From contig JAFVBC010000008.1 of the NCBI GenBank assembly GCA_017480185.1, forward strand, positions 114,889-178,888: a DNA stretch of 64,000 nt, in the 5' to 3' direction. Of the stretch, positions 11,798 through 59,776 are shown piece by piece. The translations under genes and the position numbers were made by a program. The DNA is from Bacteroidales bacterium (lineage in GTDB: Bacteria; Bacteroidota; Bacteroidia; Bacteroidales; P3). Below the pieces are notes generated by a model. That model was given only the letters and a program-made list of their open reading frames with translations. It searched no databases and was not told where the DNA came from. The stretch's first letter is position 1, and each line of letters begins with the position of its first letter.

Positions 11798-13109
11798 CCT
11801 TGAGCGCTTGTTTGGTTGAGGGGGTGATGCGATAGCGATGGTCGATGCGCAAACCTACAACCCACAGAATGTGGTCGTTGTTGTCGGTGAGTACGCACAC
11901 ACGCTGTTTCTCAATTGGATTTAGTTTTAGGTCTTTAAGAAAATCGCTAACCAGTCGTTGGTGGTGCATGCCAAACGGTTGGAATTTGTCAGCAGCTCGC
12001 CATCTTCTTATGCGACACGGCATGGCAAAGGTTGAGATGTCGAGATAGGCGACAGCGCTTTTCTTTATTTCTTCGGTAGACTGGATGTCGGTTGCGTTTA
12101 TTGTGTCGAAAAGAATGTTGGGTGAGGTCTCGTTCTGTGAAGGCGAGATGATAAACTGGTTTTTATCAATGGCTAAGGTGTGGGTGGGGGAGAGGAATTG
12201 CTTACCTTTTGTGGTAGAGCAGTTGTTGAGAATGTCTGAAACTATACTGCTATTGAATCCATAGGGGCGGATGAGTTCGAAAAGAAGAGTGTTTGGAGAG
12301 GGAGATTCAATGATTGGCGCAATGGGAAGAAGGGTGTAGCATTCACCGTAAAGTCCGATTATTGAGGATGTAAGTGTTTGTCTGAGTTGTGAGATGTGCT
12401 GTGTGTAGATTTTTTCAATCTCGGAAAGTCGCTGGATGTTTGCCTGCATCGTGTTGTCGATGGCTGGGTAGAGCTCGCGCAAAAGAGGCATTAGGAGATG
12501 TCTGATTTGGTTACGTCGGCTATCGAGTTCGGCATTGGTTAAGTCCTCATCGAAGGGGATATTGTGAGCCTCAATGTAGTGTGTTATCTCGTCTCTACTA
12601 AAACAGAGCATCGGGCGAATTAAGCGATAAGAACCATGAGCGGAGGAGTGGTGAGAAGTGGGGAGTATTCCATGTAGACCACTGATGCCTGTGCCACGGA
12701 AAAGGTTGAGGAAAAATGTTTCGCAGGAGTCGTCTTTGTGGTGGGCGGTGGCTACGCATGTGTAGCCATGTGTCTGACAGAGTGAGCCGAAATAGTTGTA
12801 CCGTAGGTCGCGTGCCGCTTCTTCAATAGAAAGATGATTGTCGGATGCATACTGACGGGTTGGGAAGACGACGGTGTGGAATGGAACATGGAGCGATTGT
12901 GCAAGATCTTTGACATGTGCTTGTTCAATATCACAAGCCCCAGGACGCAACTGGAAGTTGCAGTGTGCTATGGCGAAGTTGTGGTGGGTGAGACTAAAAA
13001 GGTGAGCCATGGCAACGGAGTCGCGCCCTCCGCTAACGGCCAGCAGCACCTTGTCGTCTTCAGAGACAAGGTGCTGCTGGCGGATGTAGTCGGTGAATGT
13101 GTGCAACAT
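11772..13109 (-). CDS. tilS: tRNA(Ile)-lysidine synthetase
   Basis: 445 aa with the PP-loop LLAVSGGRDSVAMAHLF near the N-terminus. Its 3' end overlaps the convergent ABC-F gene by 26 nt. Its start ATG shares a base with the stop of the upstream giant gene. Confidence 0.85.
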   Translation of the reverse strand: MLHTFTDYIRQQHLVSEDDKVLLAVSGGRDSVAMAHLFSLTHHNFAIAHCNFQLRPGACDIEQAHVKDLAQSLHVPFHTVVFPTRQYASDNHLSIEEAARDLRYNYFGSLCQTHGYTCVATAHHKDDSCETFFLNLFRGTGISGLHGILPTSHHSSAHGSYRLIRPMLCFSRDEITHYIEAHNIPFDEDLTNAELDSRRNQIRHLLMPLLRELYPAIDNTMQANIQRLSEIEKIYTQHISQLRQTLTSSIIGLYGECYTLLPIAPIIESPSPNTLLFELIRPYGFNSSIVSDILNNCSTTKGKQFLSPTHTLAIDKNQFIISPSQNETSPNILFDTINATDIQSTEEIKKSAVAYLDISTFAMPCRIRRWRAADKFQPFGMHHQRLVSDFLKDLKLNPIEKQRVCVLTDNNDHILWVVGLRIDHRYRITPSTKQALKATLAPQLQ

Positions 13110-16100
13110 TATCGCAGAATCATCTTTTTCATTTTCTTGTCGCCGTCTACCTCGATACCATAGTAGTATATTCCAGTAGGATAACTGTCCATATTGATGG
13201 TTATGGCATGGTCGCCAGCTGGGTAGAACTGGTTGCTCTCGTAGACCTTCTTACCCATTATATCCATAATAAACAGGCTGACGTTGGCCGAGTTGGGGAT
13301 GGAGAATGGTATCACTGTGTTGTTTGAGAATGGGTTGGGATAGTTTTGCCCAAGGTCAAGTTCGGAGGTGGATAGGGTGGGTACTCCTTCGACATAGTTC
13401 ACCACTTCAACCACAGAAGTTTGATTGTTATCGGTGTTCATCACGTCGATGGCCAAAATGAAACGTCCAGTGCCGATGTACCTGCGTAGCGGACTCTTTT
13501 CTATCTTGGTGGGGAACTGTAGTGTGGCACTTTGACCAGGATCAATCTGGCGGCGGATGTTGTAGGAAAGATTGGTGCCATTGACAGTGCCACGAAGCTG
13601 CAGTGTTCGAGTGGAGTCGAGCGCAAGGTTGCCGACATTGGTTACTTTGATAAACACACGGCAGTCGGGGTTGGCGTTTTCTTCAACAATTACCTTGTCT
13701 ACGGCAAGGTCGAAGTATTGCTCAACCACACGGTTTGTAGTGTCGTTGCTACGGTCGTTGTCGTTGTTTATGTGAACATATCCACTCAATGTGCGGTATC
13801 CAGTTGAGCGCATGGGAAGAACGACATTGAAGAGGTGCGAGGCTGTGGAAAGAGCAGGTATTGGAAGATCTCGATAGTATGTCTCTCGAACCATTGTTGT
13901 TGTATCATTATCGATCCAGAATCCAACATCGAAGTTGTTGGCACCACGAGCGCCTCTGTTTTCGATTATGAGTTCGAATTGTACGGTTCCGTGTTTCGAG
14001 GAGTCGGCTATGACACCGGCTGCAGCAATATCCATGATGGATGATATGCCGTTGATACGGTGTGTGATAGTGTCGTTGTAGATGTAGTCGTTGGAGTCGC
14101 TCTTGATGAATGCTGTTAAATCCATCATACCCATTGATGCTCTGAACTTCTTGCGGAATGTGTAGTTGAAGAATTCCATTGATTCAAGTGGACGACCAAG
14201 CATCTGATTGAAGTCTATGATTTCGACCGCACGGTCTCTGCCGTTGAAATCGAGTGTGGCTGTTGCTGTGGGAATTTCGCTTAAACCGAAGTTTCTTATT
14301 AGAATAGAGACTGCTACTTGAGTGTCGCCAGCGATGACTCGTTCAAGGGGTTGGACGAAATTGATGGCGGCAATGTCGTGATCAAGTGGCGCAATCATAA
14401 ATGTCTGTCTAAGTGTGTCGTTGTCCCAGTAGATGTCAAGAGGTTGCTGGGTAAAGGCTTCGATCTCAAACTCGGTTGGGAAATCGCTTGTTACGAGGAA
14501 TGGCGTAGTGAACGAGAACGTGTCGGTTGCGCCGGGGGCAATGTTGCATGTTATTTCGTTGATCTTTGCCAGATTTGCTCCGTAGTGAGTGTAGCCTATC
14601 TGCATGTTTCGAACGGTGTCATATCCATAGTTCTTCACAACTACTTGAGGATAGAGCTGCTCTCCAAAGCGTGGGTATTGAGGTTGTGTTATTGCTATCA
14701 CTCCCACGTCAATGGCACGTTGAGCACGGCCAATGTAGAAGTTGTCGAGAGCGCAACCATCACCGAAACTGGAGCCGGTGGATGAGCCTTCGGGTGTACG
14801 ATAAACAAATCGGAATTGCAACTTCTCTGGGAACTCAGAACTTATGTGGTTTGTAGTAGTTCGCATCCAGTAGCGGTTGTAGGTATAACCAGATGATGTG
14901 CCATCAAATACCATGTTTTCTTCATTGTTGTAGAAGGTAACCATTGAGTCGTGTTGCAGTTTTGTCCAGTGTCCTTGATAGTTTAGGTATTCAAGGTGTA
15001 GTGTGCTGTTGTTTACCAAATTGCGGAGAAGACGGAATATGATGGTGTCTGGACGGACCTGAGATATGTCAATTATTGGGCTATATAGGTAACTTGCATT
15101 ACCTCGTTTGCCTGATACAATTGGGTTGGCAAGGTCGGTAACCCATGCGTTGGGAGCAGAGTAGGCACTATAGATGACACTCTTGTGGGGCGCTCCCAGT
15201 TGCCAGTAGTTTTTAGTGTAGGCATTGCGCCCTGAAGGAGCATACCAGTAGTTGAGCGAGTCGAACATCTCGTTCATACGAAGGGTAACGGAATGGAATC
15301 GGACGTACTCGTACTCAATGTGATTGTTGGCCGTGTCGGAGTCATTGGGATAGGAGTGGAAAATCTGGACCTTGGTAACTCCGTAGGGGAAGTGGAAGTA
15401 GGGTAGGGTGATGACCATACCAGAATTCGATGCGAGATTGCCAGTCCATGTGCGGCGTACGAATTGCGAAGAGTCGGGATTGTCTGCCTCAAACATACAC
15501 ATGTATTCAAATTCGTTTACTGGTTGAGTACCTTTGTTGTATACGTAGAACGATACCGATGCAGAATCGTCATCAGGAATAGAGAACTTGCGTGGGGAGA
15601 CTATTCGAGTGAATGCCAGGTCTGTGCTCACGGCTTCTTTGTCAACAAATAGGAGGAAGTCTATGGCATGTCCGGAACCACTTGTTGGGCACCCTGTAGA
15701 CTCGGAGGCTCCTTCTGGTTGCACAATGACTCTCATGCGCATGTATCCATACGATGCATTGTTGGGAATGGTCAGTCGGGTGGCAAGTTTTTGTTCTGTT
15801 GCAATTACCGTGGTGGGAGAAATCACACGTTCGGTAGCATCGAAGTTTCCGGAACGATCAAGATCTATGAATACGGATATATCACCAGCTATGGGTGAAT
15901 ATATGTCGTTGATGTTGTTCAACTCCACTATTAACGAGTCTGTCATGCCGCGAGTTACGTGGAGAACTCGTTCTTCGGGATTGGGATAGTCGGCAAGGTC
16001 GGTATAGGTTCGTCCTATGCTTGAAATGTCAAAGTCTATACAGTTGAAAGATACTCGGCTAATGTCTAACATGCCTGGTTCGAAATTGCTGCCAGGCACG

Positions 16101-19100
16101 CACAGCGCTGCACTGGGAGATATGGAAGTGAACCCATACTGTTGCCCCGGATCTGTATTGCCTCCATTGTAAGGCATTCTTAAAGTGTCGTTTCGTCTAA
16201 CATCATCGTTGGCAAGGTCAGTCCACACTTTCAATGTATAGGCTTGTGCTGTAGTGGGCGAGTTGGTCATTAAAAGAGAGTCGAATGTGTAAATAACCGT
16301 TTGCCCTGGTTGTATGCTGCCTGGGTATGTTTCTGTGACTGTTTGTAGAACGGCGTTGTTGCGACGTAGTTGATAAGCCAGTGGGAAGTTGGATTGTGTC
16401 TGTGTACCGTAGTTGATAATTCTTAAGCGTACAGTGTCGTTTTGCATATAAACCCTGTTGCCGAGAGGTGCAATTATAGCCTCAACGCTCAAATCATTCG
16501 GCATTGGAGGAGCTACGGATACTCTTACAGGGGAGAATTTACTTGTACAGTTTTTCGCGCTTATACAGTTGAGATAGTACACAGAGTCGTGGAAGAATTG
16601 AGGCGTATTATTCCACCATCTTGATGTATTATAGTTGGCGTTTGTATAGAATGGATTTGAAAGGGTGTCTCTATACCATCTCACAGCAAGTGGAGTGCTG
16701 GGTAGGTTGTCTTGTGAAGAACGAACTCTTCCCCATGTTCCGTATGCAAAAGTTGTGTCAAATCCGTGTGGCGGGTTAGGTGTGTAGAATGCATCTACGA
16801 TGGGAGATGATGTTTGGGAGAGAGTTGTAGCATTGTTGTCGGTGAGAATATCGTAGAGATGTTTGCACCAACCATCAACACGTACCTTAATGTTGAGTAA
16901 GGTGTCTGTAGGATAAAGATTAGCTTTTCGTACAAACTCAAACACTTTTGTTTCATTCTCGATTATTGGCTCTGTCAGGATTATTGTTTCCTCAACGGTG
17001 TCAATCATGGTCCGAATGTTTATTTTGTTAGCGTTTAAGTTGGTTGTAGCACATGATGGGTAGTAACCTTGTGTATGGTACCCGATACGTATAGAGTCAC
17101 CAGGCAGGAATTGCTTGAACCCAACATTCTTTAGGGTTATCTGAATAACCGCCTCCTCTAAATTACAACCGGAGGGAACTATCATTCTTGTAGCCTCAAG
17201 GTTGTATGCAGGAGCCAAGTAAACAGGAGTCTTCATGTAGTTGTCTTCCATGTTATCATCTTCTCCGATAATCACTTCTACATGAATCATGTGAGTATCT
17301 ATTATCCCAAGAGGTGATGGAACAAGAATAGAGTCCATAAACAACTCTCCAGCAGGAACATTATACAGTGTTTTTGTGATGCTTTGGGATATCCTTGCTC
17401 CAGTTGTGTCTCTATAGTTGGTCATGTATGCGTACCACTGCACGGTACTCTCCATAGAGTTGCCGTTGTTGTAGAATAGCACTTTTACAAGGATGGAATC
17501 AGATTCAATATTAAGAGGGTTATTCCTATTTTCTGGCATCTTCGGCGATTCAATCTTGACAATTGTCATGTCGTGTGCATTACGTTGCATCTCGTGTGCA
17601 CCTATTGTTGGCGCCGGGATTTGGGGGCGAGTATTACCATCAATGTCATCTATAACATCTGGGTTATATTGCGCTTTTGTAACAAAGTTGGTCATAACCA
17701 GATGCAGGTTGGTATCATTCACAAAGTAAGGCGCTTCTTCAAGCGACCGAATATCCATGTTGTTTCTAGTTTGCAGAGTATCCAGGTTGTTGATGAATTG
17801 GCTATTCCATAATGCTAATACATTGCCTTCAGTGTAGTATGCGTTGTAGTTTGATGTGGTGATACCTTCACCATTACGAACATCATAGGCAAATCCCGAA
17901 CCGTAGTTTGCCAAGATATTATTCATAATAATTAGGTGAGAGTTTGTTGCACCTGAATACAGAGAACTCGACATCGTGTTATACTGATTGGCTCCAGTTG
18001 CGTTTATTCTTACTGTGTTGAAGCAAATATTAACGTAGGCACTGCTGGAATCAATCCTGATGCCATTTGGCTGCTCTGAAAGGTTTTGGGCTGGATTGCA
18101 GTTGTGTTGGCAGGAAATCATGTTGTTGGAAACTCTTCCCCATTGTTGATTGATACCAACAATGTTGGAAAGTTTTATGCCGCTTTTACCTCCGTTCATA
18201 GCATCTATTAGGTAAATCTGATTCTTGGATATTAAGAATTTACCTGTTGTATTGGCAATATATACACCAGCTAAATTTCTATTGCTGCGTATCATGCCAG
18301 ACGTTATATAGTTGCCACTAATTTCTAATCCAGAAAGTCCTCTCAGGTTAATACCGTGGAAAGTGAAGTTTTGAAGAGTGTTGTTGGATATGGTTATGTT
18401 TTGGTAGTTTTGAATAGCCCCTGCATGGTGAATGGAGTAGTAACCACTGTCAATCACATTGTTCTCCACGTTGAGTTTTGATACATTCCCATTCAGGACA
18501 ATGCACGATGAGTTAAAGTTGTCTAATGTTCCTTTGACTGTAAGATGGCTATTTCTTACTACAATATTGGACGCATTTTGTATGACGAGGACATCTCCAA
18601 ACTGTACTGTTGGTGGACGAGAAACCAAATGAAGCCTATCTAATATCACATTAGATGCACCATTAAGTTTCAGCACGTAATTATTGGCTTGTGTTGTGGC
18701 TACACGCAAGAATACGCTATCGTTTTCCCCATGGAAAGTGAGAGTATTGTTTGTAGACGACCCCTCAATATTTCCAAGATAGATTTGCTCGGTGTATACT
18801 CCAGGACGAATATCAATTCTGACAGGACCTGCTATACCGACAACATTTAATGTATCAATGAGTTTGGAGAATCTATCAAAGTCTGGTGTCTGTCCGCCAA
18901 CGGTATAGACACCACCGCAGAACCTAACTTTGAACAAACGGCTTAACGTGTCGTTATTGTGAACATCGTCGTTTTCGGCAATTACGTATGCGTGCACAAA
19001 GTGTCTACCTGGTTCAAGCGGCAGCGAAAATAAGGGTAACGTAACGGAGTCTCCACCATGTAATACATTTGTATAAGCTATAGTATCTTTTCGGGCAGCA

Positions 19101-22100
19101 TTATCAACGTAGTAAACAATTTTTGCATTGTTTAGATTGCCAAGGCCAAGGTTACTGATAGTTATAGGTAAGGACACGTTTCCACATGAAGCGTAGGTGG
19201 CGGTGTCATACCCATTGGGCCATGAAATACAAGCGTCAATTTGTGGTGTACCAATAGGCGTGATGCGTATGTTAGTACGAGGGCCTTCGCATGCATAGTC
19301 CGTACCTGTTAATCTAATGTCGGGACGTTTATCAGATTGGGGTAGACCATTGCTAACATACCCTAATAGTGATGGGCTCACGCTATTGTTCGTTGCAATG
19401 TATAGAACACTATTTGCCCTTGTATTGTAGGTAGACTGTATGCCAGATGTTATTGCAGCGGTGTTTTGCATTGCCACTTGAACAACAACGTTGCTCGTAC
19501 CATCCCAAATTATAGGTGTGTCAAATTCGTGTTTTACCCACTTATGATTGTTCCTCTTGTAAAATCTCAAGTTGCTTCTGTACATGACTTGACTTACAGG
19601 TTTCCATGAGTTTCTTGCTGCGAAAAAGGTATCGGTAGTAAGCCCCATGTGTATATAGAAGTCTGCGACTGTTATTGAGTCAATTCGAGTGACCACATTC
19701 ACATCACATAGCGAGTCTTGATAGAATGCCACCGCACTAATTGGCCCGGGCTGTAACCCCATGGCAGTCAGTTCGGCAGCTGTGTATATATATTGTTGTT
19801 TGCTTAATTTATTATAGGTTTGAAACGCAGAAGGGTATTCAGTCTTGGTCGTTTTAGTTTGAGTGTTTCCAAGTTGTTTCTCAGACTTAGTCATCGCCAT
19901 ATAACTCACACCAATCGTTCCCTCGGTATATCTGTTTCCTGTTATAAATGTATACCCAGTGTCAGAGACATTTCCGTCGAAATTATACCATAGAGGCATT
20001 GCATTAGAAGGTGCTGTTATTGTTATTGTATCAGATGTGCCATAGTTTATGGTGCGGTTCGTTGTTACTACAGGTGCCGATGGTGTGAAGTTTACAAACG
20101 TAGAGCCCGATGTCGTGTCGTTTTCTGGTCTATGGTCGTCGGCTACGTTCGAAGACCACACTTTGACAAAGAATGTGCTATCGTATGACACATTCATGTT
20201 TAGCTTGGTATTGAACGTATATATTAAACTATCTCCAGCAGCAATGGGTGTAGTTACAAGTTCACTGACTGTAGCCCCACCTCCATTGTAGTTTAGGGTA
20301 TATCTATTCACCGTAACAGTACCGTAGTTATGAACGGTTACGGTTATGTCTTCAAGCCCCAGACCACAGCCTGTGGGCAACTGCAAATTATCAAGTTCAA
20401 GATCGGTACTGGGGGCTCGTGTTACAACCACATGTGCCGTCCCTTTGTCTCCAGGACAGCCATTGCCGGTAAACATCATAATGCTTGAGTCAACCTCGCC
20501 CAGTGTCATTCTTCGTTCGTTCGAGGCTGCAACCCAGTCAGTAGAGTCGCCGTTAAACGCCACGCGAATGAAACCACTCACATACGAACTGGTTATGGGA
20601 ACTCCTTGAGACCCCCATACATAACTTGGAATATTCAAATCCGCCCATTTAAGTGGTAAGGCCGAGCCAGCCGTCACCAAGTCTTTGAATGCTACAGCAT
20701 CCTCAATTACTCCTTCACGGCGGTAAACAAACCCCAAATTATTATTGTCGGCCATAACCAGTGTCGCTCCGGCATATATGGTTTTTTCTGGATTTACTGG
20801 TGTAGACGCGGACGGAACCAAGTATTGTACCGTCATAGACTGCCCAGGTTGTAGAGTTATGCCAGTAAAACCACATATCTTATTGTTGAGCAATGATGAT
20901 GTTGAAATGGTTTGTAGCGTATCGCGAGTAAGATTTGCTGGAGCATCACCCACATTGGTAATTTGGGCAACAACTCTCACACTTGAAGCCAACCAATCGG
21001 GATATGGTTCGGTAAGACCGACGTAGGAAGTACCTACTCCTCTAAACAATTGTATTTGGGTCAGTCTTACAACAGGCACCTGGCGTCTTTGCTCCATGAA
21101 GAAGTCTTGCGTTACGCGCAAAGGATCGGTAATAAGAGTGTCGCCTATATGCATTGGCACAGTGTCTGTTATGTTTCTGTACCAGTACAATGTTGAACGT
21201 TTCTTTGGTGCTGTTGGATCACTATATACGGCCCACATGTTAATGCCAGCGGTGGGAACAATCGTATCTCTTTCAAAGTATTCAACGCTCGACTCTATTC
21301 TTGTGGGTGCAGTGGCATGATAGCGACTGATCACAGCCAAATCCATCGTGTCGTTTGTCTTGTTGGGATCGCTGGTCGAAGAAACCCAAATACGCATAGC
21401 GTAGGTGCTGTCTTTAAGGCCATTGGGAGGCATTGTTAAGCGTATGCCTGTATTTATGTTGACTGTGTCGTCAGAGTTAATTGTCTGCGTTACGGTAGCA
21501 TACTGTTCGGCATTGTTGTTTATTTTGCAGCCTATACGCAGCGTTGTACCACCGTAGGTATAGCGGTTACTACCAGTGTTGGCCACTTGTAAAATCAGTT
21601 CAGTGTTATTCTCTATTGCGCAGTTGTCTTCAAGTGGTTGCAGCAAAGCTATTGGCTCAAAGTCATATTGCAAAGTGGCAAACTCAAATGCTCCAGCACA
21701 TGGCCGAGAGGCATCTCTCGCCGTGCCAAACATATCTGTCGTTACTTGTGAAATAGGAGTGGCCAACCCCTTTATGACGCGAATATATGTCCTCAAATCA
21801 ACGGGAGTTGAGTTTAAGAAACCAGGATTGGCAGATTGTGATGCATCATCTTCGGTTACTGCCGATTGCCATGCCGCCAAGTCGTCAAACGAAACACCTG
21901 TACGGCGGTTTAGAGTATATCCATTTGAGAAGTACAGGTTGTGATTAACCAAATTGCCATTATCGGCTGGGGCCAAGTAATTGAATGCATAGTTCACGTC
22001 GTCCATGCATGCGACTATGTTGTTCATAAAACGGCAGTTGGTCATCGTCCCTCCACCAAATGTAGCAGCTGCCGTACTTGTACGCTCTCGTGCTGTCAGT

Positions 22101-24943
22101 TTCACCGAGTTGTACACCACGTCAATCCAATTTCCTTGAATGATATTGAATGGGGTGGTGATTTGTGTCGAAAGGCCATCGTCGTTACACACAATCATGT
22201 TGTTTGCAATCAACGCCCTATTGGCCGAAGTGCCTTCCACCGAACTGACACCCAGTGCTCCTGCACCATGCGAGGTGTACAATTTGTTTCCAGTAAAGCG
22301 AACTGTGCCGTCGCATTGATACAGCAGAGCAACGTAACTTGAGTTGCTGCTCACATCAGTCATCTCGCAGTTGCTGATGGTCAGATTCGATTGATTTGCC
22401 GCATATAAGGCATTGGAGGTTTGCCCATCAAAGACACAATTGTTTATCAACTGATTTTGTGATTTCTGGCTGACATCAAGGCCGACAAGGTTAACTCCAA
22501 TGTTTCCGCCGTGGAATGTACAGCCCACGACTTTAAGGCTACTCGCCGAACTGCCGTTTATCAAAGCGTTGATAGTCAGCGATGCATTGGGCGAATCAAT
22601 GCTGTCTGTGAATGTGCAGTCAAGGAATTGGCAGTCGCTACTTGTGCCACTCAACTGCACCATGTTGGTCATCGCGTTGCGTGTACGGTAGAAGTTGAGA
22701 TTTCTAAAACGTATGTGGTTTGCCTGTGTAAGGTCAATCAATGCCGACATGTCCCCTTCAAGGTTGGTAATATTTACCGTTGTGTTCGGTGCACCTTGCA
22801 GAAGCAGATAGTTGCGGGTCGACAAACCTGGTATTGTTGGCACGGTAAATCCGTTGTAAGTGCCGGGCGCCAGAGTTACTATCAGCGAATCGCTAATTCC
22901 ACACAGGCTTAATGCATTGAGAAACTGTTCTATTGTCTCATAGTCAGATGTGGGTGTACCTACGGTGCGTGTGCCGTGCATTGCTCCTGCACACACCACA
23001 AAGTCGGTGGCACTGGTGTCGTTGAACGGTTCATGGTCGCGCCATTGTACACTTGCCGAGGTCAATGTGTCTTCAACCCAAGCTTTCATAGAGTGGTAAC
23101 CTGCGGCGAGTTGAAGCGTGTTGCATACCTCAACGGCTATGCTGTCTCCACCGTTTATTGTCCCTGTCCAGTCAAAGTGTCCGCTGATGGTCTCATCCAC
23201 CAGGTAGGAAATTCGTATTGCATTAACAGGATTTGCACCGTAGTTTTTGAGCCACACTACCAGACGTTCGTTGGGTTGATTGGTCATGGCGGTAGTAGCG
23301 TTTGGATAACTAAAACCGCTCACCCCCATGTCATAAACCAAAGGCATATTCTTTTGCGCTCCAAAACTGAAGGCCGCACGATCGTCCGACACGTCATCGC
23401 CCATCGGTATGCCAGTATAGGCATTGTAGCCGTATGCAGCGGCACCATCGTAAACGTATATTGTTTTTTTTGTTGATGGCGCAGCTATTGTCCTTATCGG
23501 AGTGGCTGCACCATCATCATCGCCGTCGTAGATTATGTGCATCAAAATGTCTTTACCTGCATAGAAGAAAGTGTCGGTAAAGTTTATTGTTTGTTGTGTA
23601 CCTGCACCAACAGCCGATGAAACAAACGTGGTGTCGTACACCACCTGCATATACGACGTTGTGAACTTCCTCGTGGTGGCATCCGATTCGTAATTGTTCG
23701 GTATGTTCTTCATCCAAATTTGGAAATTCGGACGGCGTTGAGTGCTGCTGACGTTGGTGGCAACCGTATAGGTGAGCGAGGTTATTCCTCCCGCTTTATA
23801 TCCTGCATTGGCCAGCAAAGCCGAGTCGTACACCATCTCGCAGCGCATGTCAGCATTGCCCGAAAATGGGAAATACTCGCTCCTGCGGTTGTTGTTATCA
23901 CCAAGTAGAGTGGGTGAATTAGACGACCATGCTTGACCACGCACGCAACGGTAGGTTACGAAAGAGCCTGCAGCGTTTGGATACGACACTTCGTTGTGGT
24001 TTGTGGTGGCATCTTTCACTTGGCAGTAGAAGTCCATAAGTGTGTCATAACCCATAAAGGGCACGCGGTAGGTAAATTCGCCTGCCGATGAGGCTACCGG
24101 ACTCATGGTCTGTTTTGTCCAAATCGAGTCGCTCGACTTGCGATAGAAAATAAACACCGAGTCGGCAGCTATACCTTGCGACACCGATGTGGTAGCACGC
24201 AGTGATACTCGTGCACCACGGCTACTGGGGTGATCTCCGCCATCGGGGTAACACAGCATCTTGATGCGTGGCGACACTATTTGGTTTTGGCTGGCGCGGA
24301 CGCGAATGTTGTCAATCCACCAACTCGTTCCAGTGGCGTTGCCTGTTGATGTCTTCTTCTTGGTAACGAATTTGAATATCAGTTTACGGTCGGATTGAGG
24401 TACGCTTGCCGTCAGAATACTGTTAAGGTCAAAACGTTCGCTCTTCCAGTTGTCGTTAGTGGGAGTGCGCAGGTTCACCCAGTCGGAATAAACCTCCTTA
24501 TTGAACGTACCGATGCTGGTAAACACCGTGCTGTACACTTCGCGGTCGGTGTTATAGTTTTGCGAGGTCAGTTGCTGCCAACGAGTGTCGGGGTCGCGAG
24601 CCAACTTCACATATATCACGCCAACCATAACGTCGCTACCGCTGTTGGTGGCAATGTTGTTGATGTGGTCGAACTCAAGGGTTATGAAACGCAACTGCGT
24701 GTTTTGAGTGAAGTCTATCGTGTCAAGAAACAACTCCACATCATTGTCTCGGCTTTGCGTCAGCTTTATACACTGTGAGCCACTGGCGGCAATGCTATTG
24801 TCTGTACTGTAGGTTCCAGTAGCGTTCCAGTTGGTCGGCGAACCTGGTTCAAAGCCCTGATAGAACATTTCAAAAACCTGTCCGTGGGCAGTAAGGCTCA
24901 TTAGCGTGGCAATCACACATAAAATTGTGAGTCGACGTTTCAT
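13109..24943 (-). CDS. Giant secreted cell-surface protein (about 3,944 aa) with parallel beta-helix modules and a T9SS C-terminal sorting domain
   Basis: N-terminal signal peptide MKRRLTILCVIATLMSLTAHGQ from the ATG at 24943. The ORF-track start 24988 is GTG. Two long stretches of PbH1-like beta-helix repeats, for example NNTLQNFTFHGINLRGLSGLEISGNYITSG. The C-terminus ...LGQNYPNPFSNNTVIPFSIPNSANVSLFIMDIMGKKVYESNQFYPAGDHAITINMDSYPTGIYYYGIEVDG matches the Por_Secre_tail (T9SS type A CTD) pattern. One uninterrupted 11.8-kb frame. Confidence 0.85.
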   Translation of the reverse strand: MKRRLTILCVIATLMSLTAHGQVFEMFYQGFEPGSPTNWNATGTYSTDNSIAASGSQCIKLTQSRDNDVELFLDTIDFTQNTQLRFITLEFDHINNIATNSGSDVMVGVIYVKLARDPDTRWQQLTSQNYNTDREVYSTVFTSIGTFNKEVYSDWVNLRTPTNDNWKSERFDLNSILTASVPQSDRKLIFKFVTKKKTSTGNATGTSWWIDNIRVRASQNQIVSPRIKMLCYPDGGDHPSSRGARVSLRATTSVSQGIAADSVFIFYRKSSDSIWTKQTMSPVASSAGEFTYRVPFMGYDTLMDFYCQVKDATTNHNEVSYPNAAGSFVTYRCVRGQAWSSNSPTLLGDNNNRRSEYFPFSGNADMRCEMVYDSALLANAGYKAGGITSLTYTVATNVSSTQRRPNFQIWMKNIPNNYESDATTRKFTTSYMQVVYDTTFVSSAVGAGTQQTINFTDTFFYAGKDILMHIIYDGDDDGAATPIRTIAAPSTKKTIYVYDGAAAYGYNAYTGIPMGDDVSDDRAAFSFGAQKNMPLVYDMGVSGFSYPNATTAMTNQPNERLVVWLKNYGANPVNAIRISYLVDETISGHFDWTGTINGGDSIAVEVCNTLQLAAGYHSMKAWVEDTLTSASVQWRDHEPFNDTSATDFVVCAGAMHGTRTVGTPTSDYETIEQFLNALSLCGISDSLIVTLAPGTYNGFTVPTIPGLSTRNYLLLQGAPNTTVNITNLEGDMSALIDLTQANHIRFRNLNFYRTRNAMTNMVQLSGTSSDCQFLDCTFTDSIDSPNASLTINALINGSSASSLKVVGCTFHGGNIGVNLVGLDVSQKSQNQLINNCVFDGQTSNALYAANQSNLTISNCEMTDVSSNSSYVALLYQCDGTVRFTGNKLYTSHGAGALGVSSVEGTSANRALIANNMIVCNDDGLSTQITTPFNIIQGNWIDVVYNSVKLTARERTSTAAATFGGGTMTNCRFMNNIVACMDDVNYAFNYLAPADNGNLVNHNLYFSNGYTLNRRTGVSFDDLAAWQSAVTEDDASQSANPGFLNSTPVDLRTYIRVIKGLATPISQVTTDMFGTARDASRPCAGAFEFATLQYDFEPIALLQPLEDNCAIENNTELILQVANTGSNRYTYGGTTLRIGCKINNNAEQYATVTQTINSDDTVNINTGIRLTMPPNGLKDSTYAMRIWVSSTSDPNKTNDTMDLAVISRYHATAPTRIESSVEYFERDTIVPTAGINMWAVYSDPTAPKKRSTLYWYRNITDTVPMHIGDTLITDPLRVTQDFFMEQRRQVPVVRLTQIQLFRGVGTSYVGLTEPYPDWLASSVRVVAQITNVGDAPANLTRDTLQTISTSSLLNNKICGFTGITLQPGQSMTVQYLVPSASTPVNPEKTIYAGATLVMADNNNLGFVYRREGVIEDAVAFKDLVTAGSALPLKWADLNIPSYVWGSQGVPITSSYVSGFIRVAFNGDSTDWVAASNERRMTLGEVDSSIMMFTGNGCPGDKGTAHVVVTRAPSTDLELDNLQLPTGCGLGLEDITVTVHNYGTVTVNRYTLNYNGGGATVSELVTTPIAAGDSLIYTFNTKLNMNVSYDSTFFVKVWSSNVADDHRPENDTTSGSTFVNFTPSAPVVTTNRTINYGTSDTITITAPSNAMPLWYNFDGNVSDTGYTFITGNRYTEGTIGVSYMAMTKSEKQLGNTQTKTTKTEYPSAFQTYNKLSKQQYIYTAAELTAMGLQPGPISAVAFYQDSLCDVNVVTRIDSITVADFYIHMGLTTDTFFAARNSWKPVSQVMYRSNLRFYKRNNHKWVKHEFDTPIIWDGTSNVVVQVAMQNTAAITSGIQSTYNTRANSVLYIATNNSVSPSLLGYVSNGLPQSDKRPDIRLTGTDYACEGPRTNIRITPIGTPQIDACISWPNGYDTATYASCGNVSLPITISNLGLGNLNNAKIVYYVDNAARKDTIAYTNVLHGGDSVTLPLFSLPLEPGRHFVHAYVIAENDDVHNNDTLSRLFKVRFCGGVYTVGGQTPDFDRFSKLIDTLNVVGIAGPVRIDIRPGVYTEQIYLGNIEGSSTNNTLTFHGENDSVFLRVATTQANNYVLKLNGASNVILDRLHLVSRPPTVQFGDVLVIQNASNIVVRNSHLTVKGTLDNFNSSCIVLNGNVSKLNVENNVIDSGYYSIHHAGAIQNYQNITISNNTLQNFTFHGINLRGLSGLEISGNYITSGMIRSNRNLAGVYIANTTGKFLISKNQIYLIDAMNGGKSGIKLSNIVGINQQWGRVSNNMISCQHNCNPAQNLSEQPNGIRIDSSSAYVNICFNTVRINATGANQYNTMSSSLYSGATNSHLIIMNNILANYGSGFAYDVRNGEGITTSNYNAYYTEGNVLALWNSQFINNLDTLQTRNNMDIRSLEEAPYFVNDTNLHLVMTNFVTKAQYNPDVIDDIDGNTRPQIPAPTIGAHEMQRNAHDMTIVKIESPKMPENRNNPLNIESDSILVKVLFYNNGNSMESTVQWYAYMTNYRDTTGARISQSITKTLYNVPAGELFMDSILVPSPLGIIDTHMIHVEVIIGEDDNMEDNYMKTPVYLAPAYNLEATRMIVPSGCNLEEAVIQITLKNVGFKQFLPGDSIRIGYHTQGYYPSCATTNLNANKINIRTMIDTVEETIILTEPIIENETKVFEFVRKANLYPTDTLLNIKVRVDGWCKHLYDILTDNNATTLSQTSSPIVDAFYTPNPPHGFDTTFAYGTWGRVRSSQDNLPSTPLAVRWYRDTLSNPFYTNANYNTSRWWNNTPQFFHDSVYYLNCISAKNCTSKFSPVRVSVAPPMPNDLSVEAIIAPLGNRVYMQNDTVRLRIINYGTQTQSNFPLAYQLRRNNAVLQTVTETYPGSIQPGQTVIYTFDSLLMTNSPTTAQAYTLKVWTDLANDDVRRNDTLRMPYNGGNTDPGQQYGFTSISPSAALCVPGSNFEPGMLDISRVSFNCIDFDISSIGRTYTDLADYPNPEERVLHVTRGMTDSLIVELNNINDIYSPIAGDISVFIDLDRSGNFDATERVISPTTVIATEQKLATRLTIPNNASYGYMRMRVIVQPEGASESTGCPTSGSGHAIDFLLFVDKEAVSTDLAFTRIVSPRKFSIPDDDSASVSFYVYNKGTQPVNEFEYMCMFEADNPDSSQFVRRTWTGNLASNSGMVITLPYFHFPYGVTKVQIFHSYPNDSDTANNHIEYEYVRFHSVTLRMNEMFDSLNYWYAPSGRNAYTKNYWQLGAPHKSVIYSAYSAPNAWVTDLANPIVSGKRGNASYLYSPIIDISQVRPDTIIFRLLRNLVNNSTLHLEYLNYQGHWTKLQHDSMVTFYNNEENMVFDGTSSGYTYNRYWMRTTTNHISSEFPEKLQFRFVYRTPEGSSTGSSFGDGCALDNFYIGRAQRAIDVGVIAITQPQYPRFGEQLYPQVVVKNYGYDTVRNMQIGYTHYGANLAKINEITCNIAPGATDTFSFTTPFLVTSDFPTEFEIEAFTQQPLDIYWDNDTLRQTFMIAPLDHDIAAINFVQPLERVIAGDTQVAVSILIRNFGLSEIPTATATLDFNGRDRAVEIIDFNQMLGRPLESMEFFNYTFRKKFRASMGMMDLTAFIKSDSNDYIYNDTITHRINGISSIMDIAAAGVIADSSKHGTVQFELIIENRGARGANNFDVGFWIDNDTTTMVRETYYRDLPIPALSTASHLFNVVLPMRSTGYRTLSGYVHINNDNDRSNDTTNRVVEQYFDLAVDKVIVEENANPDCRVFIKVTNVGNLALDSTRTLQLRGTVNGTNLSYNIRRQIDPGQSATLQFPTKIEKSPLRRYIGTGRFILAIDVMNTDNNQTSVVEVVNYVEGVPTLSTSELDLGQNYPNPFSNNTVIPFSIPNSANVSLFIMDIMGKKVYESNQFYPAGDHAITINMDSYPTGIYYYGIEVDGDKKMKKMILR

Positions 24944-25032
24944 ATACTGTGTTTTTATATTTCGGTGTATTTCAGTTTGTTGTTGCACAAAACGTGAGCC
25001 GAAATATGCATTTCAGCCCATTCGCGCAATGT

Positions 25033-25040
25033 GCAAATAT
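25033..25040 (-). promoter_or_regulatory. Candidate Bacteroidetes -7 promoter box (TAnnTTTG) for the giant gene
   Basis: Minus strand reads TATATTTG immediately downstream of the rlmB terminator T-run. That leaves a 5'UTR of roughly 90 nt before the ATG at 24943. Motif match only. Confidence 0.3.
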
Positions 25041-25070
25041 ATAAAAAAGACGACATAATGTCGCCTTTTT
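25041..25070 (-). terminator. Rho-independent terminator after rlmB
   Basis: Minus strand reads AGGCGACA-tta-TGTCGTCT, a 7-8 bp stem with one G:U pair, followed by TTTTTTATAT. Confidence 0.45.
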
Positions 25071-45346: not shown

Positions 45347-46420
45347 ATGAGTTTTGAATGTGTTGAAAAACAATATATTGTGTTGCCGGTCGACAGACAT
45401 CAAGTGCGCAGGCAAAGGCTGAAATTGATTGTTGTTTCGGCTCTTGTGATGCTATTTGCCCCTTGCGTAAAAGCGCAGAACGAGGGTCAATACACGCATT
45501 TTATGTTTAATCGGTTGAGTTATAACCCGGCCTACGCAGGCAGTTCGGGCTCAATATCGCTCACGGCTTTATATCGCAATCAGTGGATGGGTTTGACTCT
45601 GCAGCCCACGGTGTTGGGTGAGGAAGCAGGAACGACACCAACCAATATGCTTTTCAGTTTTGATATGCCAGTGTCGGTGTTGCATGGCGGTTTGGGCTTG
45701 ACTGTGAATTCAGAAAAGTATGGATTCCACAACAACTTGAATATCGACATTGATTATGCTTTCAGAATTTTTTGGGGACCTGGCAATTTGGCTGCAGCAA
45801 TAGAAGCAAATCTGTATAGTTACCAGTTTGATAAAAGCAATCTGCATGGGTCGAGCGACCTTTCGGGGCGTATACTTGACCCGACTGTCACTACAACCGA
45901 CCCCGTGCTTGGAGGGAGCGAGTCGTCGTTTATGATTGATTTTTCGACAGGTTTGTACTATCAAGTGCCCAGTGTTTACTATGTTAGCCTGTCGGTAAAG
46001 AATCTGCTTGGCTCTTCGAATGATGATTTGGGAGTTAAAAATGTGCGTACGCTTTATCTTATGGCTGGATATGAGTACAACTTCCCCTATAACCCATCGT
46101 TCACAATTAAGCCATCAATGCTTGTAAAGGCTGCAGGCTTTTCGGCTTTTCAAGCGGATGTGGCCTGTTTGATTGATTATGAGAACATTTTTTGGGGTGG
46201 ACTTGGCTATCGTTGGGGAGATGCTTTCACTTTCATGGGTGGTTTGAACTTCTTGAAAGTGATGCAGGTGGGCATCGCTTACGACCTAACCACATCGAGG
46301 CTCGGCTTTGGTGGAGGACGGAGTATTGGGTCGGCAGAGATATATTTGAATGCAAGTTTCCAAATAACAATACCAAAGAAAGCACCGTCGGTTAATAGGA
46401 ACACCAGATACTTGTTGTGA
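45347..46420 (+). CDS. porP: T9SS membrane protein PorP/SprF family
   Basis: The N-terminal mature region ...QNEGQYTHFMFNRLSYNPAYAGSSG matches the PorP/SprF signature (Q..QFSQYMFN....NPAYAG). 357 aa from the ATG at 45347. An in-frame GTG at 45404 would give a cleaner signal peptide VRRQRLKLIVVSALVMLFAPCVKA. Confidence 0.7.
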   Translation: MSFECVEKQYIVLPVDRHQVRRQRLKLIVVSALVMLFAPCVKAQNEGQYTHFMFNRLSYNPAYAGSSGSISLTALYRNQWMGLTLQPTVLGEEAGTTPTNMLFSFDMPVSVLHGGLGLTVNSEKYGFHNNLNIDIDYAFRIFWGPGNLAAAIEANLYSYQFDKSNLHGSSDLSGRILDPTVTTTDPVLGGSESSFMIDFSTGLYYQVPSVYYVSLSVKNLLGSSNDDLGVKNVRTLYLMAGYEYNFPYNPSFTIKPSMLVKAAGFSAFQADVACLIDYENIFWGGLGYRWGDAFTFMGGLNFLKVMQVGIAYDLTTSRLGFGGGRSIGSAEIYLNASFQITIPKKAPSVNRNTRYLL

Positions 46421-46485
46421 AAAAAGACGGTGAAAATGAAACATTTTTGAGAAAAACCCGTTTAGAAAACAAAAACCAGGATAAT

Positions 46486-47847
46486 ATGAAGAAGTTGTTT
46501 TTCATTCTCGCAGCGTCGACAGCAATGCTCTGCGCTTGCAGTTCTTCCAATAATGGAGAACTGACAGGTGTGGCCAATCGCCCTTACTTTGAGGATATTG
46601 ACCTCAAGGGAATGGTGTTTGTCAACCAAGGAAATTACACCATGGGCGCTGGTACACAAGATGTGACCTACGGCAAGACAACGCAGCCCCGCAAAATGCA
46701 GATTGAGTCATTCTTTATGGATGAAACCGAGATTACAAACAATGAATATCGTCAGTTTGTATATGCTGTGCGCGACTCGGTGGCCCGTCGCATTCTTGGA
46801 GATGCTGGTATCGATGGCTTTATCATTGAAGAAGATAAGTATGGTGAGCCACTTGATCCACCCATCTTGAACTATAAGACAAAAATTAACTTCAATGATG
46901 TTGATGTGCGTCAGGCGTTGATCGACGGTGGTTTCTATGTCACTGATATTAACCATCGTAAGGCTCTTGATGTGTCGAAGATGAATTATGAGTATTATTT
47001 CATCGATTATAATGATGTCTCGAAGAAGGAAAACGGTGTGAATGCTCGCGCCGAACATAAGGGCACTTCGTTCGCCGTTCGTCCAAAAGGATTGAACAAT
47101 CGTGCTTCTCAAATTCAGAGGGAGTATGTGAATATCTACCCCGACACACTTTGCTGGGTCCACGACTATGCTTACAGCATGAATGAGGACTATACTCGTA
47201 ACTACTTCTCGTCGCCAGCTTATGACAATTACCCTGTTGTCGGTGTGAGTTGGAGACAGGCTAAAGCTTTCTGCGTATGGCGCTCGAACATGCTGAATCA
47301 GTATCTTGAGAATATCGACTATTCGCAACTTAATGACTTCCGTCTGCCGACCGAGAGTGAATGGGAGTTTGCTGCCCGTGGTGGAATTGCTGCTCAAAGT
47401 TATCCTTGGGGCGGACCGTACGTGAGAAATCCCAATGGCTGTTTCTTGGCAAACTATGAACCTTTGAGAGGCGCTTACGACGACGATGGTGGTGTCCGCA
47501 CACTCATGGTTGGCCACTATGCTCCTAATGACTATGGCTTGTATGATATGGCTGGTAACGTCAGTGAGTGGTGTTTGGATGCCTATAATGAGTCAACGTA
47601 CATTGTCGCAAACGCTATTACCCCCTACTATAATTACGATGCGAAAGACGATGATCCACTGGCTATGAAACGCAAAGTGGTTAGAGGTGGTAGTTGGAAA
47701 GACCAAAAGTACTATATCCAAGTTCAAACTCGCACCTACGAGTTTATGGATACTGCAAAATGTTACATTGGTTTCCGTTGCGTGCAGCCTTATTTGGGTC
47801 GTGTGAAGGGTGATAACCTACGCACAGCTTCAAACGTGGCGAGATAA
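46486..47847 (+). CDS. porK: T9SS lipoprotein PorK/GldK (formylglycine-generating-enzyme-like fold)
   Basis: Lipoprotein signal MKKLFFILAASTAMLCAC at the ATG at 46486. The ORF-track start 46417 is GTG. FGE/SUMF1-like C-terminal motifs include VVRGGSWKD. Confidence 0.8.
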   Translation: MKKLFFILAASTAMLCACSSSNNGELTGVANRPYFEDIDLKGMVFVNQGNYTMGAGTQDVTYGKTTQPRKMQIESFFMDETEITNNEYRQFVYAVRDSVARRILGDAGIDGFIIEEDKYGEPLDPPILNYKTKINFNDVDVRQALIDGGFYVTDINHRKALDVSKMNYEYYFIDYNDVSKKENGVNARAEHKGTSFAVRPKGLNNRASQIQREYVNIYPDTLCWVHDYAYSMNEDYTRNYFSSPAYDNYPVVGVSWRQAKAFCVWRSNMLNQYLENIDYSQLNDFRLPTESEWEFAARGGIAAQSYPWGGPYVRNPNGCFLANYEPLRGAYDDDGGVRTLMVGHYAPNDYGLYDMAGNVSEWCLDAYNESTYIVANAITPYYNYDAKDDDPLAMKRKVVRGGSWKDQKYYIQVQTRTYEFMDTAKCYIGFRCVQPYLGRVKGDNLRTASNVAR

Positions 47848-47911
47848 GATAATCTCAAAAGCTTATATTGAATAACATAATCTATTAACAACTATAAACA
47901 AAAGCTAAATT

Positions 47912-48805
47912 ATGAGTTTTATTAACAGGCTCGTTCGTAGTAAAGCATACAAAACATTCATGGGATACCTTTATGGTATCGGTGCTGCCGTTGTGATTGT
48001 GGGTGCTCTGTTCAAAATTAACCACTGGCCTGGTGCAACGTTAATGCTTATTATGGGTATGGGTACAGAGGCTGTTATATTCGTTCTATCTTCGTTTGAG
48101 CCGCCACATAAGGAGTGGGACTGGAGTTTGGTGTACCCCGAATTGGCTGGCATGATTGAACAGCCAGGAGGTGAAGGCTTGAATGTTGAACCAATGGTTG
48201 ACGAGAATGGTAATATTATTGAAAATGCAGAAGGCGAGGTGGCTCAACCTGTGAGTAAGGATCCTCTTACGGCACAACTTGATAAAATGCTCGAAGATGC
48301 TAATATCAGTCCCGAACTCATTGACCGTTTAGGCCAGGGAATGCAGAATCTTGCTGAAAGTGCCAATTCTATGAACAATATGGCGACAGCTACTGCTGCT
48401 ACTGACAAGTTTGTAAGCAATATGGATGGTGTTGCCGATCAGGCTGGTAAGTTGTTGCAAAGCATGCAAGGCGCACCTGAAGCAGTCTCTACGCTCTCTT
48501 CTATCTATCAGGAAACAGCCCAATCGTTGAATGGGGAAATATCCTATGTTGATGAGATGAAGAAGATGACCGCAAGTTTGAGCTCGATCAATGCAATGTA
48601 TGAGATGCAGATAAACAATGCTTCTACACAGTTGACATTGAACAAAGAGTTTGAGGAGAAAATGGGTACGATGCTTAGCAACTTCACGGATTCAGCCGAT
48701 GGTATCATGAAGTATAAAGAACAAGTAGATGCCCTGACTCGCAAGGTGGCTGAATTGAACAACGTGTATGGTAACATGTTGGCTGCTATGCAGACAAGAA
48801 TATAG
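47912..48805 (+). CDS. porL: T9SS/gliding motility protein PorL/GldL
   Basis: 297 aa. Two N-terminal TM helices (YGIGAAVVIVGALFKI, ATLMLIMGMGTEAVIFVLSSF) then a cytoplasmic helical domain. Operon position between porK and porM. Confidence 0.75.
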   Translation: MSFINRLVRSKAYKTFMGYLYGIGAAVVIVGALFKINHWPGATLMLIMGMGTEAVIFVLSSFEPPHKEWDWSLVYPELAGMIEQPGGEGLNVEPMVDENGNIIENAEGEVAQPVSKDPLTAQLDKMLEDANISPELIDRLGQGMQNLAESANSMNNMATATAATDKFVSNMDGVADQAGKLLQSMQGAPEAVSTLSSIYQETAQSLNGEISYVDEMKKMTASLSSINAMYEMQINNASTQLTLNKEFEEKMGTMLSNFTDSADGIMKYKEQVDALTRKVAELNNVYGNMLAAMQTRI

Positions 48806-48854
48806 AGAGAGAAAGACAACAACACACCTAACGCACAGCTAAACTAGATTTAAT

Positions 48855-50519: not shown

Positions 50520-50542
50520 AAACAATAGTAATACATATCGTT

Positions 50543-51421
50543 ATGAAGAAGTTAATGTTAGGTTTGTTTGCCATTCTTTCTTTGGGTTATGGTGTCAATG
50601 CTCAAAGTATTGTTGATGCAGAAGATGGGACTAATCCAAACGATTTTTACCAGACTGGCATCGTTGTTGGCAAAAGGGCCATGCCTTATCCTTACTTGCG
50701 TGAGAGCGATGTAGTATGGAAAATGCTTGTGTGGCGCAAGATAGACTTCAATGAAAGTTTTAACCAATTCTTTTATTTCCCTGTTGATCAGGACAAGAAC
50801 ACGCAGGGGCGTATCAGCCTTGTAAATCTTATAATCAATGCTGCCAAGAATGGTAGTTTTGAGGTGTATGAGGACGATGATATGAAAGTGCCTCAAGACT
50901 TGGAAAAAGCAATTGCAGGCTTGAACGGACAACGCAAGACAACCGAGTATGGTGAGGAGGATGAGTTTGGTGATGTGGAGGAAAAAGAGGTTATTTCACC
51001 CGACCCATTTGATGCAGGCTCTGTAAAAACAGCCATGCTCAAAGAGTGCTGGTATATTGATAAGCAAGACACACGTCAGAAAGTGAGAATCGTCGGACTT
51101 GCTTTCAGTTATAGAAAAAACATGGTGCGTGCTGGTCAGGAAGAGGAAACCCAAGCCGAGTCGTTTTGGATACCGATGAATCACATGACTGTGCGACAAG
51201 TGTTGGTGAATGCTAATGCTTTTGACGAAAACAATGACGTAGCTGAGCGTTCGTACGACGATGTGTTTATTCAAAGGTACTTCGATAGTTATATAACCAG
51301 AAAGTCAAATAAGTTCAACCGTCGTATAGATGAATATCTGACAGGAGAAGATGCGATAGTGCAGTCGCAAATGATAGAAGAAGAGTTATTCAACATTGAG
51401 TCGGATATGTGGGAATATTGA
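50543..51421 (+). CDS. porN: T9SS/gliding motility protein PorN/GldN
   Basis: 292 aa. Signal peptide MKKLMLGLFAILSLGYGVNAQ. GldN-family blocks include VVWKMLVWRKID..E.FNQFFYFP and KQDTRQ. Operon position after porM. Confidence 0.75.
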   Translation: MKKLMLGLFAILSLGYGVNAQSIVDAEDGTNPNDFYQTGIVVGKRAMPYPYLRESDVVWKMLVWRKIDFNESFNQFFYFPVDQDKNTQGRISLVNLIINAAKNGSFEVYEDDDMKVPQDLEKAIAGLNGQRKTTEYGEEDEFGDVEEKEVISPDPFDAGSVKTAMLKECWYIDKQDTRQKVRIVGLAFSYRKNMVRAGQEEETQAESFWIPMNHMTVRQVLVNANAFDENNDVAERSYDDVFIQRYFDSYITRKSNKFNRRIDEYLTGEDAIVQSQMIEEELFNIESDMWEY

Positions 51422-51446
51422 TGTGTGAAACTTTGAAACCAAACAA

Positions 51447-51487
51447 AGAGAGTTAAGAGAGAGATACTCTTAACTCTCTTCTATTTT
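51447..51487 (+). terminator. Rho-independent terminator between porN and its paralogue
   Basis: AGAGAGTTAAGAG-agagata-CTCTTAACTCTCT, a perfect 13-bp stem, followed by TCTATTTTAATT. Confidence 0.55.
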
Positions 51488-51491
51488 AATT

Positions 51492-59680: not shown

Positions 59681-59733
59681 TTAGAGGTTTGGTGTTCAAT
59701 TGGTTTTGTCCTGTACACTACAGGCCTTTTAAG

Positions 59734-59774: not shown

Positions 59775-59776
59775 GG

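Follow-up and report, generated by a model that had tools for sequence, protein, structure and literature searches.

The window analysed here, a 64,000-nucleotide stretch of a metagenome-assembled genome (MAG) from a Bacteroidales bacterium (GenBank GCA_017480185.1, contig JAFVBC010000008.1, positions 114,889 to 178,888), carries a gene of 3,944 codons encoding a predicted type IX secretion system (T9SS) cargo protein, and the last nucleotide of its stop codon doubles as the first nucleotide of tilS, the gene for tRNA(Ile)-lysidine synthetase. In all 11 related lineages that were sampled, for the most part from the guts of ruminants and other animals, this giant gene stands immediately before tilS in the same orientation, and the family to which it belongs keeps its length and domain order across wide divergence. 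The conserved adjacency of the two genes, the 1-nt overlap present in five further lineages and the missing -7 promoter box before tilS are best explained by co-transcription and translational coupling, and we consider it fairly probable that the pair is an operon, conserved in one clade of uncultured gut Bacteroidales, in which tilS is translated by termination-reinitiation behind a surface protein that is probably non-catalytic.

The giant gene runs on the minus strand from an ATG at 24943 to a TAA at 13111-13109 (11.8 kb) without an internal stop, and NCBI lists its product under MBR1798672.1 with the name [quoted passage not shown]. A longer form starting at GTG 24988 is unlikely because the orthologues and the family consensus begin at the same methionine, with the signal peptide directly after it; behind the signal peptide the consensus shows the motif AQ/GQ followed by xxxxYxQGFE. 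On the plus strand, positions 13107-13111 read c-a-t-t-a, which is TAATG on the minus strand. The junction ...CTG CGA TAA TG TTG... has one A in common between the TAA of the giant gene and the ATG of tilS (13109-13107), just as the initial annotation had read it, and the pair has the sequence hallmark of coupled genes, being co-directional with a -1 overlap. The product of the downstream gene matches TIGR02432 with 171.6 bits (cut-off 93.6), TIGR02433 with 28.1 bits (cut-off 20.2) and PF01171 with E = 1.7e-45. Both TilS_C models match, so that the PP-loop N-terminal domain and the TilS C-terminal domain are both present.

Linkage of the two genes extends well beyond the window. The nearest relatives of its TilS are about 50% identical, and every contig examined among them has a giant gene with a C-terminal sorting domain (CTD), of approximately 3,930-3,964 aa, ending at tilS. 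The form of the junction varies: the stop and start overlap by one nucleotide as TAATG in the window, L041, L042 and L043 and as TGATG in L037 and L040, while L044 has a 4-nt gap and L045 a GC-rich hairpin spacer of 77 nt. A scan with TilS added three Bacteroidales MAGs from buffalo and yak rectum in which TilS is 41-43% identical and a collinear giant gene, its product 33-37% identical, again stands upstream; there, 67-76 nt with a strong hairpin and a T-run separate the two genes. Hairpin spacers of 67-77 nt occur in L045, L003, L004 and L005. In these lineages the tilS ATG lies some 15-25 nt behind the T-run of the terminator, and no canonical -7 box is seen.

Downstream of tilS the neighbouring gene changes from lineage to lineage; examples are a T9SS plug gene, a pseudouridine synthase gene, an AbiEii toxin gene and, in the window, an ABC-F gene. 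The last of these (9872-11797) is convergent with tilS, and the 3' ends of the two overlap by 26 nt (11772-11797). A block comprising genes for a MiaB-like protein, a PASTA protein, a 623-aa CTD protein and an RluD-like protein together with the plug gene flanks tilS in L037, L040, L042 and L045; the same block is found in the window at 54545-61021, more than 40 kb from tilS. The displacement of this block and the differing neighbours of tilS indicate that rearrangements have left the giant-tilS pair together. More distant Bacteroidota have no giant gene upstream of tilS, and two distant members of the giant family (L046 and L047, with 27-29% identity across the N-terminal 660 aa) have an intrinsic terminator behind the giant gene, and no tilS there. 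In a neighbour-joining tree of TilS, built without support values, the linked lineages are monophyletic and the group with terminator spacers is sister to a crown group with overlapping genes, within which the window branches first and the cases with +4 and +77 spacing are nested. This topology suggests a path in three states, in which a giant gene with its own terminator, as in the unlinked outgroups, would have acquired tilS just behind that terminator, as in the sister clade, and the terminator would then have been lost and the genes brought into overlap, as in the crown group. Such a series, from terminator to terminator plus tilS to 1-nt overlap, would be a natural record of how the transcription unit of a surface-protein gene of 12 kb came to absorb an essential housekeeping gene.

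Sequence signals around the pair place a likely promoter before the giant gene and none of the canonical type before tilS. The SpoU-methylase gene upstream ends in a hairpin and T-run, which implies that the giant gene opens a new transcription unit. Directly after this hairpin stands a perfect TATATTTGC box (25041-25034), identical to boxes found ahead of other genes in the window; it conforms to TAnnTTTG, the -7 box of Bacteroidetes promoters (PMC6847099, PMC7366714). Four lineages (the window, L001, L046 and L047) have a TAnnTTTG box at a distance of 85-107 nt ahead of the giant ATG. On the coding strand, no such box occurs in the window between 13109 and 15497, i.e., in the 2.4 kb upstream of tilS, nor within 3 kb upstream of tilS in L037, and none stands at a conserved position in the orthologues; this search used the -7 consensus only, a sigma-70 scan being uninformative for Bacteroidetes. 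The RNA of the junction is not unusually structured (z = 0.54), and Rfam gave no match near the locus. As a separate observation, many genes in the window (e.g., those at 5456, 28801 and 63641, minus strand) have a TAnnTTTGC box so close to the ATG, at 12-14 nt, that their mRNAs are implied to be leaderless. A conserved leader of about 85-107 nt, by contrast, precedes the giant gene and could have a regulatory role. In L001 the SpoU gene and the giant gene are separated by additional T9SS cargo genes and a gene for a sigma factor.

From this arrangement we infer the following course of transcription, coupling, secretion and function. Transcription would start at the giant gene's own -7 box and yield a leader of about 90 nt on a bicistronic transcript of approximately 13.3 kb, from whose 3' end tilS would be translated. 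A ribosome terminating at the TAA would restart at the overlapping ATG, and the level of TilS would be low and proportional to the expression of the giant gene. The giant protein itself would be exported by Sec and then pass through the T9SS by means of its type A CTD, to serve as a structural surface or binding protein in the core biology of the clade. The two products probably have no functional relation.

The initial annotation had called the arrangement unusual. As far as the overlap goes this does not hold, since 10 of 34 co-directional gene pairs in the window overlap, as do approximately 15% of pairs in most prokaryotes, and overlapping co-directional pairs are known to be tightly coupled by termination-reinitiation, and in Bacteroidetes even reinitiation makes no use of Shine-Dalgarno sequences (Huber et al. 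2019, PMC6728339). The unusual features lie elsewhere, in which two genes are paired, in an upstream cistron of 3,944 codons and in how well the arrangement is conserved. The pair resembles the described termination-reinitiation pairs (PMC6728339, PMC10666635) in its co-directional -1 overlap and lack of a Shine-Dalgarno sequence. Coupled pairs often encode subunits of one complex, as stated in PMC10666635, whereas here a surface-protein reading frame precedes an unrelated cytoplasmic tRNA-modification enzyme to which it would be coupled. If tilS does depend on the giant gene's promoter and on reinitiation behind 3,944 codons, the pair would be an extreme test case of termination-reinitiation in a phylum that does without Shine-Dalgarno sequences, and such dependence could protect a costly gene from loss.

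The best-surviving alternative is that the overlap reflects genome compaction, with tilS transcribed from a weak or non-canonical promoter of its own, located inside the giant gene no more than a few hundred bases from its end, and translated independently. We regard this as unlikely, though it is the rival to be taken most seriously. The frequency of overlaps in the window fits it, and the stretch ahead of the tilS ATG, being rich in A and free of structure, would suit initiation of the Shine-Dalgarno-independent kind described for Bacteroidetes (PMC6847099). Against it stand the absence of a TAnnTTTG box from the intervals given above, the lack of any island of synonymous-site conservation in the last 120 codons (360 nt) of the giant gene, and the retention of the 1-nt overlap in six lineages with TAA and TGA stops alike.

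Several points nevertheless weigh against the operon with termination-reinitiation that we prefer, or against parts of it. An internal promoter of non-canonical type may be present in the 3' end of the giant gene, a region searched by the -7 consensus, and the A-rich sequence before tilS could support independent initiation. In four linked lineages a hairpin lies between the genes, in three of them with a T-run, and TilS is still needed there; tight coupling is thus not obligatory, and tilS in these lineages would have to be expressed by read-through or from an unrecognised promoter. The proposed evolutionary path depends on a neighbour-joining tree that carries no support values. The argument for a non-catalytic protein is a negative one, drawn from missing invariant residues and missing family matches, and the structural model used spans residues 1-1200. 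Finally, two metagenome orthologues approximately 46% identical to the window protein (L001, 10001-20265, and L002, 72-6816) do not read through: an in-frame stop at codon 1250 and frameshifts break them, which are either assembly errors or a sign that the giant gene can be lost; as real events, the interruptions could represent pseudogenisation or phase variation.

The identification of the giant protein as a T9SS cargo is consistent across its two ends and its genomic setting. Its C-terminus scores above the curated cut-offs of PF18962 (Por_Secre_tail; 35.6 bits in the whole protein and 39.2 bits as a segment, cut-off 27) and of TIGR04183 (32.6 bits, cut-off 23), marking it as a type A CTD. 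The N-terminus reads as a Sec signal peptide with a KRR n-region, a hydrophobic core and AHG before a Gln at +1; the n-, h- and c-regions and this Gln are conserved in 20 orthologues, and residues 2-19 form a helix in an AlphaFold2 (AF2) model. The same genome carries T9SS genes: porP, porK, porL, porM and two copies of porN were identified in the window, at the distance of 20 kb that the initial annotation had reported, and no PorU, PorV or Sov was seen within the window. The annotation's description of a single-frame T9SS cargo with a signal peptide, two duplicated beta-helix regions and a C-terminal sorting domain is borne out by the reading frame, the domain matches and the duplication described below. 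For a type A cargo, anchoring at the surface to anionic lipopolysaccharide would be expected (PMC9143113).

Pfam and NCBIfam models (CARDB, Ig_7, GEVED, Beta_helix and the CTD) cover about a fifth of the giant protein, leaving some 80% of its length without a Pfam family. Among the modular surface domains, those above the gathering score are CARDB (37.7 bits, cut-off 22.7), GEVED (37.8-44.1 bits, cut-off 24.4) and Ig_7 (29.3 bits, cut-off 27.3). The domains anticipated in the initial annotation were found in part: TIGR04183 and the beta-helix are present, and CUB, fn3 and lectin domains of Pfam are absent from the giant protein. Hidden Markov models (HMMs) built in blocks from 20 family members and compared with the protein itself revealed a supermodule of approximately 800 aa that occurs twice, the offset between the copies staying constant at about 1,355 aa. 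The first copy consists of a beta domain of no recognised family (domain X, residues 335-530), a CARDB-like domain (535-650), a right-handed beta-helix (655-1100) and a second CARDB-like domain (1100-1205). The two beta-helix regions are 24% identical over about 470 aa (pairwise E = 5e-14), and on these figures the duplication is real but ancient; it was not detected by BLASTP of the protein against itself and surfaced in the direct pairwise comparison and the block HMMs only. The block HMMs further delineated about 12 CARDB-like domains, each with an N-D-T motif at its end, and Ig_7-like domains near 1215-1290, 1625-1700 and 2745-2812.

An AF2 model covering residues 1-1200 and based on a 32-sequence family alignment is all-beta with a pLDDT of 87.7, against 45 with a 4-sequence alignment. 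In this model the domain behind the signal peptide is all-beta (pLDDT ~85), and its best Foldseek match in the PDB is the MAM-Ig-FN3 ectodomain of RPTP-mu; by block HMMs, the domain also shows a weak resemblance to residues 3226-3410 (3346-3403 in one comparison). Where the family members correspond to residues 1216-1510, Ig_7 matches 12 of 13 of them and the lamin-tail-like domain (LTD) 6 of 13, with E = 6.7e-09 at best; for LTD the window protein itself falls below threshold. Neither the whole protein nor a profile of region 1216-1510 found a match when PDB sequences were searched.

The giant protein belongs to a family whose members are of nearly fixed length. Residues 1-660 match 112 proteins among 1.84 billion cluster representatives, and no Pfam family; a homologue search with residues 1-1200 returned just three fragments. 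The 19 full-length matches measure 3,826-4,014 aa (mean ~3,933, SD ~43), a constancy that holds down to 27% identity, and a second tier consists of proteins of 2,000-3,300 aa with 22-28% identity. All 19 full-length members are collinear with the window protein over at least 93% of its length at 27-45% identity, with flat conservation along that length. At loci where TilS is 45-50% identical, the giant protein is likewise 45-50% identical end to end. The initial annotation had treated it as an accessory surface protein, a description that sits poorly with a family conserved in length and collinear, whose orthologues in the linked relatives have diverged about as much as TilS; to judge by these comparisons, the giant gene behaves as a constrained core gene, unlike an accessory adhesin that evolves fast and varies in its repeat number. 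We found no paper on a link between tilS and the T9SS, on one between GEVED or CARDB and the T9SS, or on the giant family. The family stands as an uncharacterised group of giant, predicted secreted proteins of fixed length and architecture in uncultured Bacteroidales, and as a candidate major surface structure of these organisms.

Comparison with known T9SS cargo shows both shared and distinctive features. Like the type A cargo proteins of Porphyromonas gingivalis (gingipains, PPAD) and Tannerella forsythia (the S-layer proteins TfsA and TfsB), the giant protein has a signal peptide and the TIGR04183/PF18962 domain. It differs from them in being 3-10 times longer, in its fixed architecture, which counts about 30 domains and includes the 800-aa supermodule twice, and in its apparently operonic arrangement with a housekeeping gene. 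With the gliding adhesins SprB and RemA of Flavobacterium johnsoniae it shares giant size and a beta-rich, repetitive make-up as a predicted T9SS-secreted surface protein, whereas the length of its family is constant to about 1%, unlike that of a protein with a variable repeat number. The CTD of SprB is of type B, and a PorP/SprF-like partner dedicated to it is encoded alongside (PMC9143113). An SprB-like identity was considered and rejected: the CHU_C model reaches 21.5-24 bits, below its cut-off of 27, TIGR04131 does not match, and the CTD is of type A; the giant gene's neighbours are the SpoU-methylase gene and tilS, with the nearest porP 20 kb away, and there is no sequence similarity. What is new is a giant family of fixed architecture within T9SS surface cargo and its conserved, apparently operonic fusion to a housekeeping gene. 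Taken alone, the finding opens no long-standing question.

Whether the giant protein might be an enzyme, as the initial annotation had also proposed, bears on its predicted role. In that case it would be anchored at the surface and act on polysaccharides as a lyase, hydrolase or epimerase, both beta-helix modules being catalytic. The right-handed parallel beta-helix (pectin-lyase) fold is indeed present, and the proteins it resembles include lyases and an epimerase as well as non-enzymes (NosD, Pel9A, AlgE4, PL6 lyases, Streptococcus pneumoniae PfbA and phage tailspikes). The identity to these is 9-17%, a match at the level of the fold, and the non-enzymes NosD, adhesin PfbA and Vag8 score as well as the enzymes. 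In both helix cores, the positions kept by 19 or more of 20 family members are Asn-ladder, Gly, Phe, Cys, Ala, Tyr or Gln; no Asp, Glu, Lys, Arg or His is conserved to this degree in either beta-helix core, and searches of Pfam, NCBIfam and PDB sequences gave no match to a lyase or glycoside-hydrolase family. These two negative results favour a non-catalytic role over the proposal of an enzyme, which we consider doubtful. The giant protein also differs from the known members of the fold in carrying its beta-helix twice, between CARDB-like domains, and it is probably a non-catalytic structural surface or binding protein in which MAM-like, Ig-like, about 12 CARDB-like, LTD and GEVED domains accompany the two helices.

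A more far-reaching interpretation would make the family a new T9SS-dependent surface structure of constrained length, such as a fibre, a ruler or an S-layer-like coat, and in effect a core component of the envelope in this clade of gut Bacteroidales, with its operon as the sole route of tilS expression and tilS as a "hostage" that stabilises a costly gene. Were this true, loss or silencing of the giant gene would cost cells the decoding of AUA. At present this is a speculative proposal, and we think it improbable.

A functional connection of another kind could in principle run through the AUA codon, which TilS serves to decode: the giant reading frame contains 110 AUA codons, and reinitiation at tilS requires ribosomes that finish this frame, so that the two might form a feedback loop in which completion of the upstream frame depends on AUA decoding. 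Codon usage makes this very improbable, as the AUA share of Ile codons is 0.41 for the giant gene, 0.376 when 23 other genes of the window are pooled, and just 0.13-0.17 in four orthologues, and distant family members are not linked to tilS at all; we have rejected the connection.

That the long reading frame or its junction is an artefact of collapsed repeats or a chimeric join, a concern raised by the origin of the sequence in a MAG, by the interruptions in the L001 and L002 orthologues and by the initial annotation's call for validation, can be set aside for practical purposes, because two independent assemblies of other runs reproduce the junction (Logan assembly SRR12529321 with an identical 3,944-aa product, and an ENA assembly of another sample, SAMN15829980, with the last 1,696 aa) and Tandem Repeats Finder detected no DNA tandem repeats in 13000-25200; moreover, the internal duplicates are just 24% identical at the protein level, and 19 orthologues have the same length and domain order. 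The G+C content of the giant gene is 0.40-0.49, slightly under that of its flanks (0.47-0.55).

Positions of the giant gene, its predicted domains and signals, tilS, and T9SS genes in the window
Feature	Position	Strand	Basis or remark
tilS, tRNA(Ile)-lysidine synthetase, 445 aa	11772..13109	-	domain models; 100% identical to an NCBI MAG TilS
TAATG junction, 1-nt overlap	13107..13111	-	TAATG/TGATG also in L037, L040, L041, L042, L043
Giant gene, 3,944 codons plus TAA	13109..24943	-	reading frame; reproduced in independent assemblies; NCBI MBR1798672.1
Type A T9SS C-terminal sorting domain, residues 3868-3943	13115..13342	-	above curated cut-offs
GEVED domain, residues 3022-3097	15653..15880	-	44.1 bits, cut-off 24.4
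Supermodule 2, residues ~1686-2570, beta-helix 2010-2465	17234..19888	-	collinear ancient duplicate of supermodule 1
Ig_7-like and lamin-tail-like (LTD) region, residues ~1216-1510	20414..21298	-	matches at orthologous positions
Supermodule 1, residues ~335-1205	21329..23941	-	domain X, CARDB-like, right-handed beta-helix, CARDB-like
N-terminal jelly-roll (MAM-like) domain, residues ~23-220	24284..24877	-	AF2 model, Foldseek; no Pfam match
Predicted signal peptide, residues 1-22 (MKRRLTILCVIATLMSLTAHG, then Q)	24878..24943	-	read from sequence; pattern kept in 20 orthologues
Bacteroidetes-type -7 box TATATTTG(C)	25034..25041	-	98 nt upstream of giant ATG
Hairpin and T-run ending the upstream SpoU-methylase gene	25043..25065	-	GGCGACAUUAUGUCGUC then UUUUUU, read directly
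T9SS core genes porP, porK, porL, porM, porN and second porN	45347..52367	+	20 kb from the giant gene
T9SS plug-protein gene	59645..61021	+	adjoins tilS in several relatives; ~47 kb from tilS here

Two further features of the window were noted. The two PorN/GldN paralogues stand in tandem downstream of porM (50543-52367, plus strand), and the same tandem pair is found in L037 and L041. On the plus strand at 33039-41407, five consecutive open reading frames (232, 662, 303, 336 and 324 aa) lack any match to Pfam at 1e-5 and are followed by genes for an AAA_11/AAA_12 SF1 helicase and a DUF5020 protein; together these may form an uncharacterised island, such as a defence system.

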